Part shown: positions 23,098 to 29,093 of the stretch, piece after piece | How positions within the stretch are numbered: the first letter of the stretch is position 1 | Layout of the letters: the number at the start of each line of letters is the position of its first letter | NCBI RefSeq assembly: GCF_003334765.1 | Contig: NZ_QOWT01000002.1 | Length of the DNA: 64,000 bases | Direction: 5' to 3' (one strand) | Source of the DNA: Escherichia coli | GTDB lineage: Bacteria; Pseudomonadota; Gammaproteobacteria; Enterobacterales; Enterobacteriaceae | The notes under the pieces: generated by a model | Told to the model about the DNA's origin: nothing | What the model saw: only the letters and a program-made list of their open reading frames with translations | Databases searched by the model: none | Program-made: the position numbers and the translations under genes

Positions 23098-25260
23098 TTA
23101 TTTCGCATCCGACTTATATTCGTATTCGTAATAGCCATAATCCTGATACGCGCTGGCGCGGCGGAAGATGGAGTTCAGAATCACCCCTTTCACCGGAATA
23201 CCGTTTTGCTCAAAGCGGCTCAGACTGGTTTCCACTTCTTTCAAGGTGTTGACCGCATAACGCGCCACCATTAACGTGGTTCCGACATGACGACCAACAA
23301 TTGCCGCATCGGTCACTGCCAGAATCGGCGGCGTATCAATCAACACCAGGTCATAGTTTTTACTCGCCCAGTTCACCAGTTCGGCAAAGCGTTCGCTCAT
23401 CAACAGTTCAGAAGGATTTGGCGGCACCTGACCGCGCGGGATCAGGTCAAATTTGGCAATAGAGGTCGGTTTAGCAGCGGTAGTAATATCGCCCTGACCA
23501 ATCAGAATTTCCGACAGGCCATTAACGTTATTAGTGCCCAGCAGCTCGTGGGTGTAGCCTTTGCGCATATCGCAGTCGATCAACAACACCCGTTTATTGG
23601 TCTGGCTGATCACCGCCGCCAGGTTGGCGCAGACAAAGGTTTTACCGATTGACGGGCTAACCCCGGTCATCATCAACACATTGTTCTGTGCCTGCATCAT
23701 CGCGAAGTGCAGACTGGTACGCAGACTGCGGATGGCTTCAATCGCCAGATCGGTTGGATTCCCCATCGCCAGTAGCTGGCTCTGTTTATAGCGTTTAATC
23801 CCTTTGATGGTTTTGACGCTATCGCGCGCTTTCTGCCATTCCGACAGCGGGATGCTGGCATAGACGCTGATACCGTGTTCTTCCAGCACCTGCGGGCTTT
23901 CGATGCCGCGATTAAACAACGAGCGCAGCAGCACACCCACGATAGAAAGCATCAGGCCAAGGATAATCGCGCCGAGGATAATCAGCCCTTTCTTCGGTTT
24001 CAGCACGCCAGGCTGGGTGATTGCCGGGTCAACAATGCGCACATCGCCGACGGTGCTGGCTTCGGTGATTTTCAGCTCCTGCTCTTTATTCAGCAGTTGC
24101 ATATAGACCTGCTGACCAGACTCGACATCGCGGGTCAGACGGACAATTTCCTGCTGGGTTTTCGGCATCGCCGTTACGCGACCATTAAGTTTGGCTTTTT
24201 CGTCTTCCAGCGCCTGACGTTTCTCCAGCAGCGTGCGGTACGCGGGGTGAACTTTGGTGTACAGCTTGGAGATTTCCGCCTCTTTAAAGGTCAGTTCGTT
24301 CAACTGCGCGTCGATGTTCACCATCGAATCGAGCACCGCTTTCGCTTCCAGCGGCAGATCAACAGAATCTTTATCCTGACGGAAGGCATTCAGTTTGTTT
24401 TCGGCAACATCGAGGCGGCTACGTACTTCCGGTAACTGTTGCGCGAGGAAAGCGAGGCTTTTCGACGCTTCCGCCGATTTGCGCTCAATATTTTGTTCCT
24501 GATAGTTACGGGCGATGCTGTTAAGAATGTCGCGGATCTGTTCGCGATCTTCACCGGTATAAGTCAGGCTCAGTACGCCTGCGTCTTTGCCGTTCTCCGT
24601 TACCGTCAGGCTGTTTTGCAGTTGGTTGATCATCCCCAACGTGGAGTATTTGGTGACGGTAAACTCACTGCCCGGGCGGGCGTGAATGGCTTCAACCATC
24701 AGCGTGACGCCTTCTTTTTTCAGCATCTGGCCCGCTTGCCCACGGGCGCTAAAGCCGCCATCACTGCTCAGAGTGTAGTTTTTGTCATCCAGCACATTAA
24801 GCGTAAACACCTGGTCCGCCATCTCTTTCGGGCGGTTAAAGGTGGTCACTTTCACCGTCTCGTTCTGACGTCCCATCAGGCGATCCCAACCCGCACCGAA
24901 AATCGGGAACGTGTTTTTGCTCACCGCAATATCGAGGTCTAGATCGTCCACCGTTTTACCAAGCACCAGACGCGAACGAATCAACTGGATCTCGGCGTCC
25001 GATGCAGGCGGTTTGTTGGCTAATGCCGAGCCAATGTCCTGCACTAACGAATTGCCGCTGTTTTGTTCGATTTGTACCAGTGCGTCGGCACTATAAATCG
25101 GCGTGGCGAAGAAAGTGTAAACCACAGCACAGAGGGCAAATACAGCGGTGATGCCAATCACCCACCAGCGCGCTTCAATGACGGTGCCGACCAGGCGACC
25201 AATATCGATTTCATCACTGCCCGTTACCGGAGCGGCATGTTGTTTTACTTTTTCTGTCAT
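23098..25260 (-). CDS. wzc: tyrosine autokinase / polysaccharide co-polymerase Wzc
   Basis: ORF 23098..25296; start trimmed to ATG at 25260 (MTEKVKQHAAPVTG). Walker A region GVSPSIGKT and C-terminal tyrosine-rich tail YQDYGYYEYEYKSDAK. Confidence 0.93.
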   Translation of the reverse strand: MTEKVKQHAAPVTGSDEIDIGRLVGTVIEARWWVIGITAVFALCAVVYTFFATPIYSADALVQIEQNSGNSLVQDIGSALANKPPASDAEIQLIRSRLVLGKTVDDLDLDIAVSKNTFPIFGAGWDRLMGRQNETVKVTTFNRPKEMADQVFTLNVLDDKNYTLSSDGGFSARGQAGQMLKKEGVTLMVEAIHARPGSEFTVTKYSTLGMINQLQNSLTVTENGKDAGVLSLTYTGEDREQIRDILNSIARNYQEQNIERKSAEASKSLAFLAQQLPEVRSRLDVAENKLNAFRQDKDSVDLPLEAKAVLDSMVNIDAQLNELTFKEAEISKLYTKVHPAYRTLLEKRQALEDEKAKLNGRVTAMPKTQQEIVRLTRDVESGQQVYMQLLNKEQELKITEASTVGDVRIVDPAITQPGVLKPKKGLIILGAIILGLMLSIVGVLLRSLFNRGIESPQVLEEHGISVYASIPLSEWQKARDSVKTIKGIKRYKQSQLLAMGNPTDLAIEAIRSLRTSLHFAMMQAQNNVLMMTGVSPSIGKTFVCANLAAVISQTNKRVLLIDCDMRKGYTHELLGTNNVNGLSEILIGQGDITTAAKPTSIAKFDLIPRGQVPPNPSELLMSERFAELVNWASKNYDLVLIDTPPILAVTDAAIVGRHVGTTLMVARYAVNTLKEVETSLSRFEQNGIPVKGVILNSIFRRASAYQDYGYYEYEYKSDAK

Positions 25261-25262
25261 TC

Positions 25263-25706
25263 TTATACCTGCTCTGCGTTCAATGCCTGCGCCCACTGGC
25301 GGGCAGACCGTTCAAGTAATGTGTACACCGCTGCAAACGTTTCCCGGCTTTTGCGATACGGATCGGGGATTTCACATTCGTTATCCCAGTGACCAAACAG
25401 CATCACTTTGCCGCGCATCTCAGGTGCCATCTCGCATAAGCGTTCGATATGGCGCTTTTCCATGGTCAAAATCAGGTCATAGTTGCGACACAGGCGGCGG
25501 CTGATTTGCCGTGCACAGTGACCTTCCAGAGACAGTTGATGTTCTGCGGCGACGCTGATAGCGGTAGGATTAGCGCCCTTACCGACCAGCGCGCCGAGTC
25601 CAGCGGACTCCACTTTCAGCTCCGGGTGATAACGTTGCAGTAAGCGTTCCGCCGTCGGGGAACGGCAAATATTGCCGACACAGACAACTAAGATGTTGTT
25701 AAACAT
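25263..25706 (-). CDS. wzb: low-molecular-weight protein-tyrosine phosphatase Wzb
   Basis: 147-aa ORF; active-site motif CVGNICRSP near N-terminus. Confidence 0.95.
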   Translation of the reverse strand: MFNNILVVCVGNICRSPTAERLLQRYHPELKVESAGLGALVGKGANPTAISVAAEHQLSLEGHCARQISRRLCRNYDLILTMEKRHIERLCEMAPEMRGKVMLFGHWDNECEIPDPYRKSRETFAAVYTLLERSARQWAQALNAEQV

Positions 25707-25711
25707 GACGA

Positions 25712-26851
25712 TTACCAGTTATGAATGTCGCTGGCTGTATCCGTCATGTAACGGACACCGCTAATAGTTGGCAGCAACTGATTGATCAGACGGTTCCAGC
25801 GGGAAACCGGGGCGGTGGTGACATACACCACGTCATAAGGTTGCAGGCGGAATTCTGTCGCCATCACCAGCGACGTCGCATCGGACATATCCAGCTGGTA
25901 GATATTGGCAATCTTGCCGTTACGCCCGCCCTCGCCTTTCAGCGGACGAATGACAAAGATGCCGCTGGCGTTGGAGGTGGTCATGTCGATACCTTCGGCA
26001 TTGCCCAGGGCTTCAGTCAGGGTCATGCCGCTAAAGTCCATTTTCAGGGTGCTCTGTTTCTTCACTTCACCCATCACAAACACTTTCAGATCATCATTAC
26101 GCGGCACGTAGAGAATATCGCCGGGGTAAAGCAGTCGGTTCTGATTGAGGTCGCCGTTTTGCATCAGCGCCTGCAAAGAAATGCGTTCTTCACGACCATT
26201 GTGTGTTAGCACCACGTTGCGCCAGTCAGCGGTGTCGGTCAGGCCACCTGCGGCGTTGATGGCGTCGAGAATGGTCAGTGGTACGTTGGTGATCGCCTGT
26301 TGACCGGATTTATTCACCTGACCTGAGATATAGGCCTTTTGCGAGCGGAAGGCGGCGATATTAACATCCACCTGCGGGTCAGCGATGTACGTCGCTAAGC
26401 GCCCGGTAATATCACTGCGGATTTCAGCGAGCGTTTTCCCGACTACGTGGACCTTGCCGATATACGGGTAAAACATAGTGCCGTCAGGCTGTACCCAGTT
26501 GCCGGTGTCGCTGGAGCTGCGGTACTGACCGGCTGGCGTGGTGAGTTCCGGGTGATCCCAGACGGTGACATTCAGAACGTCGCCCGGCCCGACGCGATAC
26601 TGGTAATTCGCGATCTCACTTTCCAGCGTCATATTGGGGCGCGCTACATTCGGGCGTGGGCGTAATTGGTCAATCAGGCGCGGGGTCAGCGGATAAACAT
26701 TCACCATTTTGTCGAGATCGAAATCAGCGTCCTGCTGTTTGATGACGTCTTTGCCCATCGTCGACATATTGCTGCCCGGAAGTACTGTGCAACCGCTTAT
26801 CAAGGTTACTGACACCAATAATGGCATCAATTTCATTTTGGATTTCATCAT
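25712..26851 (-). CDS. wza: outer membrane polysaccharide export lipoprotein Wza
   Basis: 379-aa ORF; signal peptide with lipobox LISGC; first gene of cps operon. Confidence 0.93.
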
Positions 26852-27029
26852 TGTTTATTTATCACTTTGGCAGAGTAATTATCCTGTGCACTATTAATAG
26901 CAATGTCGCCATGCACATTTACCTTGCAGTTAATTGAATACAAATTTAACTGGCATCAGTCCTAAAAAAATTGATTTCATCCGCAGGCTATTGACAGAAT
27001 AATTCAGACTGGTCTTTCAGGCATCCAGA

Positions 27030-27041
27030 CACGCTACCGCC
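27030..27041 (-). promoter_or_regulatory. ops element (GGCGGTAGCGTG) in the cps/wza leader (JUMPstart)
   Basis: Plus strand CACGCTACCGCC; same 12-mer and similar flank (ACACGCTACCGCCCCTGGCTTTTT) as the copy at 1670..1681; about 180 nt upstream of the wza start codon. Confidence 0.75.
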
Positions 27042-27509
27042 CCTGGCTTTTTAGCTACCAATACACTGATTTAGCTTAATTTTTCAAACCCTCTCTGCAT
27101 ACAATCGTTGATGAGAAAGGGTTATTGCGGAAATTAACTTCCGAATATAAGGTGACATTATGGTAATTGAATATTGGCTCTCCAATAATGCAGGAGGAAG
27201 TGTTACAGCTAACGGAATAGCAGGCAAGGTAACAATTCGGCAATTGGCTATTTTTAAGAATTATATTAAGTGTCATTCAATATGGTTTTTAGGAGTTTCT
27301 TTAGGTTGACAATATTTAATATTGCGTCTCCACATGCGATATTTCTTAAATAATGTTTTATTATTACCACTTTTAATTCAGGGATAATGTGAGGTTATTA
27401 CCCTCAAATAATATGAGATAAATAGTGCTGCAACATTGCATTTTTGCCCCGATTTATCCATGATCGAATTGTGACATTTGTCATACAACGAATAGGTTTT
27501 GTACTTACT

Positions 27510-29093
27510 ATGGAATGGATTGCCGATCCGTCTATCTGGGCCGGGTTAATCACGCTGATTGTGATCGAACTGGTCCTCGGCATTGATAACCTGGTCTTTA
27601 TTGCCATCCTCGCCGAAAAACTACCGCCGAAGCAGCGCGACCGCGCACGGGTTACCGGGCTGCTGCTGGCGATGTTAATGCGCCTGTTACTGCTGGCGTC
27701 AATCTCCTGGCTGGTCACCCTGACTCAACCGCTGTTCAGCTTCCGCTCGTTTACCTTTAGCGCCCGCGACTTAATCATGCTGTTTGGTGGTTTCTTCCTG
27801 TTGTTCAAAGCCACGATGGAGCTGAACGAACGGCTGGAAGGGAAAGACAGCAATAATCCCACACAACGCAAAGGTGCGAAGTTCTGGGGCGTGGTGACGC
27901 AAATTGTGGTACTGGACGCCATTTTCTCACTCGACTCAGTGATTACCGCCGTCGGGATGGTCGACCATTTACTGGTCATGATGGCCGCCGTGGTTATCGC
28001 TATCAGCCTGATGTTGATGGCCAGCAAGCCGTTAACGCAATTTGTTAACAGTCACCCGACGATCGTTATTCTCTGCTTAAGCTTCCTGTTGATGATTGGC
28101 TTTAGCCTGGTGGCAGAAGGTTTCGGCTTCGTCATTCCGAAAGGCTACCTGTACGCTGCCATTGGTTTCTCGGTGATGATCGAGGCGCTCAATCAGTTGG
28201 CTATCTTTAACCGGCGACGTTTTCTTTCCGCTAACCAGACGCTGCGCCAGCGGACTACCGAAGCGGTAATGCGCCTGCTTAGCGGGCAAAAAGAAGATGC
28301 GGAACTGGACGCCGAAACCGCGTCCATGCTGGTGGATCATGGTAACCAGCAGATCTTTAATCCGCAGGAACGGCGGATGATTGAGCGGGTACTTAATCTT
28401 AACCAGCGTACCGTCAGCAGCATTATGACGTCGCGCCACGATATTGAGCATATCGATCTCAACGCGCCGGAAGACGAGATCCGCCAGTTACTGGAGCGAA
28501 ATCAGCATACGCGGCTGGTGGTTACCGACGGTGATGATGCAGAAGATTTGCTCGGTGTTGTTCACGTTATCGACCTGCTACAACAGTCACTGCGCGGCGA
28601 ACCGCTCAACCTGCGGGTGTTGATTCGCCAGCCGCTGGTGTTCCCGGAAACCTTGCCGTTGTTACCTGCCCTGGAGCAGTTCCGTAATGCCCGCACGCAC
28701 TTTGCTTTTGTGGTGGATGAGTTTGGCTCGGTGGAAGGGATTGTGACATTAAGTGACGTCACTGAAACCATTGCCGGTAACTTACCGAACGAAGTGGAAG
28801 AGATCGACGCCCGCCATGATATTCAGAAGAATGCGGACGGTTCCTGGACGGCGAATGGTCATATGCCGCTGGAAGATCTGGTGCAATATGTGCCGCTGCC
28901 GCTGGATGAAAAACGTGAATATCACACCATTGCCGGGCTGTTGATGGAGTATTTGCAACGTATTCCAAAACCTGGCGAAGAAGTTCAGGTGGGGGATTAT
29001 TTGCTTAAAACGTTGCAGGTGGAAAGCCATCGCGTGCAGAAGGTGCAGATTATTCCACTGCGTAAGGATGGCGAGATGGAGTACGAGGTGTGA
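27510..29093 (+). CDS. yegH: TerC-family membrane protein with CBS pair and CorC/HlyC C-terminal domain, YegH
   Basis: ORF 27444..29093; start trimmed to ATG at 27510 ([16 protein letters not shown]). Domain order judged from sequence character and family knowledge. Confidence 0.88.

Follow-up and report, generated by a model that had tools for sequence, protein, structure and literature searches.

The window analyzed here, a 64,000-nucleotide stretch of Escherichia coli DNA, contains the genes wzc, wzb, and wza on the minus strand (positions 23098 to 26851), a 658-bp intergenic region, yegH on the plus strand, and then asmA. YegH, a conserved protein of the inner membrane, belongs to the TerC/CorC group; its relatives there handle Mg2+ and other cations, and its TerC-CBS-CorC domain make-up has been described (PMC12421838). 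Window coordinates are converted to those of NC_000913.3 by adding 2110392, so that the yegH ATG (27510) is located at 2137902. The wza-yegH intergenic region and the yegH start were 100% identical to those of E. coli O145 RM9872, and the yegH promoter and leader were identical to those of K-12 MG1655 in a by-eye comparison of that stretch. The 86-bp segment comprising the promoter and the leader was at least 99% identical in 4,546 of the 4,826 E. coli genomes that possess it. The intergenic region (26852 to 27560) had no megablast match in 587 of 5,426 complete E. coli genomes; one guess at the cause is replacement of the locus in strains with other capsule clusters. The Rfam match in the wza leader is the expected ops/JUMPstart antitermination element. 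In addition, a 49-amino-acid "hypothetical protein" is called by RefSeq/PGAP at 27160 to 27309 (plus strand) in many E. coli genomes but not in K-12. As an ORF that extends over part of the wza regulatory region, it is probably a spurious call. The features of the locus are listed in Table 1.

Table 1. Features of the wza-yegH intergenic region and yegH (window coordinates)
Feature	Position	Strand	Description and basis
JUMPstart RNA element, wza (colanic acid operon) leader	27030-27068	-	Rfam RF01707, 57.3 bits
Putative -35 hexamer TTGCAT, yegH promoter	27436-27441	+	Conservation; 17 bp to the -10 hexamer
Putative -10 hexamer CATGAT, yegH promoter	27459-27464	+	Conserved; ends 5 to 6 nt before the transcription start site (TSS)
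Pho box TGTCACAATTCGATCATG	27459-27476	-	TGTCACA-ATTC-GATCATG; overlaps the -10 hexamer, the TSS, and the left arm of the palindrome
yegH TSS	27470 (+/-1 nt)	+	SMRT-Cappable-seq, 2137862; first T of the palindrome
CRP-like near-palindrome TGTGACATTTGTCATA	27470-27485	. (read on +)	+1 to +16 of the transcript
Alternative Pho box register TTGTATGACAAATGTCAC	27471-27488	-	Motif of Yang et al. 2012 (ChIP-chip); EMSA positive
Putative Shine-Dalgarno sequence AGGT	27494-27497	+	GGT columns 94% to 99% conserved
yegH coding sequence	27510-29093	+	527 amino acids; TerC-CBS-CorC inner-membrane protein; ORF list, RefSeq annotation of K-12 and RM9872

The yegH reading frame is open upstream as far as a TTG codon at 27444, and an in-frame GTG is present at 27471. 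We take the TTG to be the former annotated start of yegH, which is consistent with version 4 of the protein record. Mendoza-Vargas et al. (2009) reported a yegH 5' end at "+26 inside the coding region," and SMRT-Cappable-seq, in which starts no more than 5 bp apart were clustered, detected a single operon for b2063 with a forward TSS at 2137862 in the NC_000913.3 mapping (PMC6131387, Supplementary Data 2). Counted from the TTG start of the longest ORF, the 2009 5' end would be 27469/27470, in agreement with the SMRT-Cappable-seq TSS, and this way of counting would be the reason why it was placed inside the coding region. A start at 27470 excludes translation from the TTG, supports the current ATG, and gives a leader of 40 nt. 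On the basis of hexamer conservation and the TSS data, we infer that TTGCAT and CATGAT, separated by 17 bp, form the sigma-70 promoter of yegH, which is weak in consensus but strongly conserved. A generic promoter scan found no plus-strand promoter, as the hexamers match at only 8 of 12 positions. A perfect 7-bp inverted repeat (GATAAAT...ATTTATC, 27417 to 27423 and 27452 to 27458, plus strand), with the copies 28 bp apart, flanks the -35 hexamer. Conservation across genera is seen for the TTTATC of the right copy (0.80 to 1.00 per column) and for a (G/T)AAATC block located upstream.

The palindrome reads TGTGA-CATTTG-TCATA and agrees with the CRP consensus TGTGA-N6-TCACA, i.e., two inverted pentamers separated by 6 bp, in 9 of 10 core positions. 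Its center (27477.5) lies 32.5 nt upstream of the yegH ATG. The original prediction, which had been made from the sequence and had described a 5+6+5 CRP-like palindrome centered about 30 nt before the ATG, was thus accurate in both respects, and a published in vitro CRP footprint (see below) confirms the motif. Two checks that it had proposed, scoring with a CRP matrix and mapping of the yegH start, could also be completed: the score falls within the range of bound sites, and the published TSS coincides with the first base of the palindrome. A symmetrized 20-bp CRP matrix derived from 39 other high-affinity sites of one published table gave TGTGACATTTGTCATA 12.5 bits, which is the second highest score among 63,981 window positions and corresponds to the 10th percentile of the training sites (range, 9.6 to 22.5 bits). 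Neither the score nor the motif counts alone beat chance. A first-order Markov sequence of 64 kb contains on average 1.47 matrix hits as good as this one, and a search of the 64-kb window for TGTGA-N6-TCACA yielded 2 matches with at most one mismatch (1.87 expected) and 22 with at most two (25.8 expected), so that about 1.5 to 1.9 equally good matches are expected in a stretch of this length. What raises TGTGACATTTGTCATA above chance is its conservation in place in many Enterobacteriaceae and the published binding of the exact sequence. The second one-mismatch match in the window, TGTGAGGGGGATGACA (57447 to 57462, plus strand), is the top matrix hit (12.9 bits). By eye it lies inside a coding sequence, probably that of the yegS lipid kinase, and is probably a chance or nonregulatory match.

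Binding of CRP to this sequence was reported by Wang, Stringer and Wade (bioRxiv 2026, PMC12871828), who used Footprint-seq, in which purified CRP protects naked genomic DNA from tagmentation. Their Table 1 includes tgTATGAcaaatgTCACAatt at 2137873, between wza and yegH, among the new CRP sites and gives it an inferred Kd of 7.0 nM; the published sequence is the reverse complement of the window site. Of 1,217 regions, it belongs to the 77 that were bound most tightly, and it is more than 500 bp from every CRP site described or predicted earlier, with RegulonDB as the reference set, and protection by CRP reaches from -19 to +20 around the motif center (PMC12871828). The site is absent from the roughly 300 CRP sites of RegulonDB, neither yegH nor wza is present in the supplement of a Crp ChIP-exo study, and our literature search found no paper linking yegH expression to CRP or cAMP and no report of in vivo CRP occupancy.

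The same bases are a documented target of PhoB, which the original prediction had overlooked, although the CRP resemblance and the positional argument that it contained both hold. Yang et al. (2012) found a PhoB ChIP-chip peak and assigned it a Pho box, TTGTATGACAAATGTCAC, centered at -30.5 from yegH, and PhoB-His shifted a yegH fragment at micromolar concentrations in an EMSA (PMC3465305). Fitzgerald et al. (2023) found a PhoB ChIP-seq peak centered at 2137862 (window position 27470), with a score of 5 and the motif TGTCACAATTCGATCATG, in a region that is bound by H-NS in vivo (PMC10294691). RegulonDB also lists yegH as a PhoB target. When scored with a PhoB matrix made from 58 other ChIP-seq sites, TGTCACAATTCGATCATG reached 14.8 bits, the third highest score in the window and a value at the 45th percentile of the ChIP-seq sites, whereas the register 27470 to 27487, one base off the 2012 call, had only 8.4 bits. 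The minus-strand box consists of two direct TGTCAYA-like heptamers with an 11-bp periodicity. It is opposite in strand to yegH and covers the region from the -10 hexamer to +7, which differs from the canonical placement, where a Pho box replaces the -35 hexamer in the same orientation as the gene. Classical activation by PhoB is therefore excluded. The reported effects of PhoB on expression are absent or in conflict. RNA-seq showed no significant change of yegH in the comparison with a phoB deletion (2,257 versus 2,498), and wza RNA was likewise unchanged (PMC10294691). In a microarray, yegH was lower when PhoB was present (log2, -0.92), whereas a plasmid-borne luciferase fusion differed between the wild type and the phoB mutant in the direction of positive control by PhoB (PMC3465305).

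Conservation was assessed in the yegH upstream regions of 80 Enterobacteriaceae species, from which 69 distinct sequences retaining the block were aligned together with the window (n = 70). The majority-base frequency was 1.00 for the TTG of the -35 hexamer (invariant) and 0.96 to 0.97 for the adjacent C and A, and it was 0.96 to 1.00 over the -10 hexamer; the promoter spacer has a fixed length of 17 bp, and its mid-spacer columns reached 0.31 to 0.53. The arms of the palindrome had mean frequencies of 0.81 (left, TGTGAC) and 0.87 (right, GTCATA), with the highest values at A27476 and T27481 (0.97 each) and 0.89 at C27475, and the second and fourth of the central four bases had 0.51 and 0.73, respectively. 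The element keeps a constant distance from the -10 hexamer and from the ATG across species. At the homologous position, -31/-32 from the ATG, the CRP matrix reached 10 bits or more in 38 of the 80 species, and the PhoB matrix did so at -41 in 48. The palindrome is absent or degraded in Klebsiella, Kluyvera, Atlantibacter, Phytobacter/Kosakonia, and Escherichia albertii, and the hexamers persist in all of these except E. albertii. As the arms are conserved and yet have been lost from lineages in which the promoter survives, the palindrome is under purifying selection but accessory to the promoter.

Among the loci lacking the palindrome about 30 to 45 nt before the yegH ATG are those of E. albertii (L002), Klebsiella (L019, L024, and L029), and Kluyvera (L063, L067, L068, L073, and L080), in which the ATG is at locus position 1501 (198 in L068). 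In Kluyvera the left arm is cleanly deleted, and in E. albertii the upstream sequence is wholly different. Most of the lineages without the palindrome retain the TTGCA...CCATGATC promoter and provide natural "operator-minus" variants for comparison.

With moderate confidence, we interpret the 16-mer as an operator that lies on the core promoter and start site of yegH, acts by occlusion, and has CRP as a genuine ligand. This interpretation is built on the sequence itself, the mapped TSS, the CRP binding in vitro, the PhoB binding in vivo and in vitro, and the conservation. RNA polymerase would initiate at 27470 from the putative TTGCAT-17-CATGAT promoter and produce the 40-nt leader. CRP-cAMP, which binds TGTGA-N6-TCATA tightly on naked DNA, would cover 19 to 20 bp on each side of the motif center, i.e., approximately 27458 to 27497, a region that takes in the putative -10 hexamer and the start site and runs through the first 28 bases of the transcript. 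As the palindrome begins at the TSS, the CRP center is at about +8.5, which is an occlusion geometry and not an activating position. The original prediction had judged a site so near the gene, if bound, more likely to be repressive or part of a leader element than classically activating, and the TSS bears this out by placing the center in the leader. Since the footprint spans the -10 hexamer and the start, exclusion of polymerase is the sole mechanistically coherent role for bound CRP, and occupancy in vivo would result in less yegH transcription at high cAMP. Phosphorylated PhoB on the overlapping opposite-strand box could likewise repress in low phosphate, weakly at best, and the weak or absent PhoB effects reported for yegH are consistent with repression from an inverted box. 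The H-NS bound to this region in vivo may limit access to the site. The microarray, with its lower yegH signal in the presence of PhoB, speaks for the model. Against the model stand the unchanged yegH RNA in the phoB deletion and the plasmid reporter, which suggests positive control by PhoB, as well as the negative outcome of our search for in vivo CRP binding or a crp/cAMP effect, the matrix score that chance would also give, and the conserved bases that CRP does not require (see below).

The occlusion model differs in its choice of principal ligand from the reading in which the element is primarily an operator for PhoB, or another member of the OmpR/PhoB family, and resembles a CRP site only by coincidence; we consider this rather unlikely. 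The conserved units would in that case be two inverted TGTCAYA heptamers, of which the minus-strand one, together with GATCATG, makes up the Pho box over the -10 hexamer and TSS. PhoB was bound in two independent in vivo studies and in an EMSA, the score of the minus-strand box is near the median of real sites, and more species exceed 10 bits with the PhoB matrix than with the CRP matrix. Furthermore, the best-conserved columns (A27476, T27481, and C27475) suit TGTCA cores, two of them lying outside the pentamers read by CRP, and TGTCA is kept on both strands in species with TATGAC, CATGAC, or CTGAC as the left arm. Part of the conservation exceeds what the CRP-only reading of the original prediction needs: the conserved C27475 and A27476 after TGTGA, G27480 before TCATA, and the near-universal TCATA instead of TCACA are not demanded by CRP, and these features fit inverted TGTCAYA heptamers or a stem. 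We know of no other transcription factor with a fitting TGACA-NN-TGTCA palindrome. However, RNA-seq revealed no effect of PhoB on yegH, the reporter and microarray results contradict each other, and the box is inverted relative to yegH and is located over the -10 hexamer, not the -35. Conservation of the second Pho repeat is uninformative, as this repeat falls on the -10 hexamer and the two cannot be told apart in the alignment. In addition, the right arm of the palindrome lies outside the best Pho box and is yet the better-conserved arm, and the affinity of CRP is nanomolar, whereas the EMSA with PhoB was done with micromolar protein.

A more ambitious version of the operator proposal would have the single 16-bp element integrate carbon (CRP-cAMP) and phosphate (PhoB) signals, with its transcribed copy forming a 5' hairpin, as a conserved enterobacterial nutrient switch on yegH. 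We regard this version as quite doubtful. If true, such a dual-signal switch would tie yegH, a paralogue of the gene for the Mg2+-stress protein MgpA, to the nutrient state.

The palindrome could also act as RNA, with DNA binding being secondary, and a hairpin at the 5' end could shield the transcript from RppH- and RNase E-dependent decay or tune translation; this we find improbable. Because transcription begins at the first base of the palindrome, the palindrome is transcribed and the mRNA opens with UGUGAC-AUUU-GUCAUA, which can form a 6-bp stem with a 4-nt loop. The hairpin is present in the minimum-free-energy and centroid folds, and the stem alone has about -5 kcal/mol in the E. coli, Citrobacter, Enterobacter, and Lelliottia versions. 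Two of the four central bases vary, in contrast to the conserved arms; the lone asymmetric position would form a G-U pair, and 88.6% of the cells were paired when stem pairs were counted across the alignment. There are also a few double changes that preserve pairing, namely, CATGAC/GUCAUG in one locus (L051) and a G-C pair instead of A-U in another (L058). However, covariation did not exceed that of shuffled alignments: two pairs with double changes were observed, 143 of 500 shuffles reached this number, and the score for covariation was below the shuffle mean. RNAalifold gave no consensus structure for 31 leaders, the fold of the whole leader had a z score of -1.0, and Rfam at a permissive threshold matched nothing at the palindrome, the JUMPstart of the wza leader being the only match. 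Moreover, it is the sequence of the stem that is conserved and not pairing alone, as is predicted for a protein site.

We consider it very unlikely that the site is competent for binding but functionally inert and has persisted through its overlap with the start region of an A/T-rich, H-NS-bound tract. The chance expectation for such a match is in keeping with this possibility, as is the fact that our searches of the literature and RegulonDB returned no in vivo CRP evidence for the yegH site. Many PhoB sites reportedly have no effect on transcription, the yegH site being among those without an RNA change (PMC10294691), and Klebsiella, Kluyvera, Atlantibacter, and E. albertii have lost the element, with the promoter surviving in the first three. 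The conservation argues otherwise: the arms are 81% to 87% conserved over many genera, among them Escherichia, Citrobacter, Salmonella, Enterobacter, and Lelliottia, compared with 31% to 53% for nearby spacer columns, and the distances of the element from the -10 hexamer and the ATG are fixed.

It is extremely unlikely that the palindrome activates yegH or the divergent wza promoter as a classical class I or II CRP site. The CRP motif itself favors activation, and a -10-like TACTAT at 27506 to 27511 would suit class II with a start near 27519, but the center at +8.5 is not near -41.5 or -61.5 or at a helically phased position further upstream. Moreover, initiation at 27519 would take place within the yegH coding sequence and none has been reported there, the wza JUMPstart and a promoter-like site near 27157 to 27184 are more than 290 bp away, and with the nearest minus-strand -10-like sequence, AAAAAT (27445 to 27440), CRP would be off register, near -44.5. 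No TSS was found near 27519, or on the minus strand about 41.5 bp away, in the TSS data searched. The spacing, together with the lack of a mapped TSS, ruled out class II activation by CRP or PhoB, whether of a divergent transcript or of a start within yegH.

The palindrome is a valid but modest finding. As binding of both CRP and PhoB to the sequence has been published, it is largely already known, and the present analysis adds three points: the sequence lies at the mapped start of a conserved promoter, it is conserved across genera, and it could alternatively act as an RNA hairpin. It is otherwise an ordinary site, one CRP site among more than 1,000. The site could serve only as a brake or a leader element, and its regulatory effect is a proposal. 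Two table entries are nevertheless turned into a testable model, occlusion-type repression under carbon or phosphate limitation, and the conditions of repression could hint at when the YegH protein is needed. The locus is also useful as a calibration case, in which the position relative to the TSS and the cross-genus conservation were informative and the matrix score and the motif counts were not.

Several known systems resemble the yegH element in part. The yegH locus is included in Table 1 of Fitzgerald et al. (2023) and in this respect is similar to the bound-but-inert PhoB sites of that study (PMC10294691), but it stands apart from them in having a box that exceeds the 10-bit threshold in most of the species compared and is superimposed on the -10 hexamer and start site of a promoter that has been mapped. 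As for the RNA, the predicted yegH hairpin would begin no more than 1 nt from the 5' end and has a moderate stability of -5 kcal/mol, and both properties are reminiscent of the 5'-terminal stem-loops that stabilize enterobacterial mRNAs, of which the ompA leader is an example. Unlike ompA-type stem-loops, the yegH hairpin is a prediction with covariation not above that of shuffles.

The occlusion model has its closest counterpart in CRP-repressed promoters such as cyaA P2, where a CRP site overlaps the -10 hexamer or the start. The yegH site is likewise of the TGTGA-N6-TCACA type, lies across the core promoter and TSS, where bound CRP-cAMP would compete with polymerase, and is bound at nanomolar concentrations in vitro. 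It differs from cyaA P2-type promoters in that repression is proposed and in having a Pho box on the same bases. A contrasting case is found in the same window, where the CyaR/RyeE small RNA gene (56240 to 56325, plus strand; Rfam, 100.7 bits) is preceded by the CRP-like sequence TTAGAAACCGATCACA (56192 to 56207, plus strand), centered at -40.5 from the CyaR 5' end, i.e., in class II geometry. With the same CRP matrix, TTAGAAACCGATCACA scored only 3.8 bits (rank 99). Both the cyaR and the yegH sites are intergenic pairs of half-sites with 6-bp spacing, but only the cyaR site has an activating geometry. As the site of this known activator target scores far below that of yegH, it is position, not matrix score, that separates the two.
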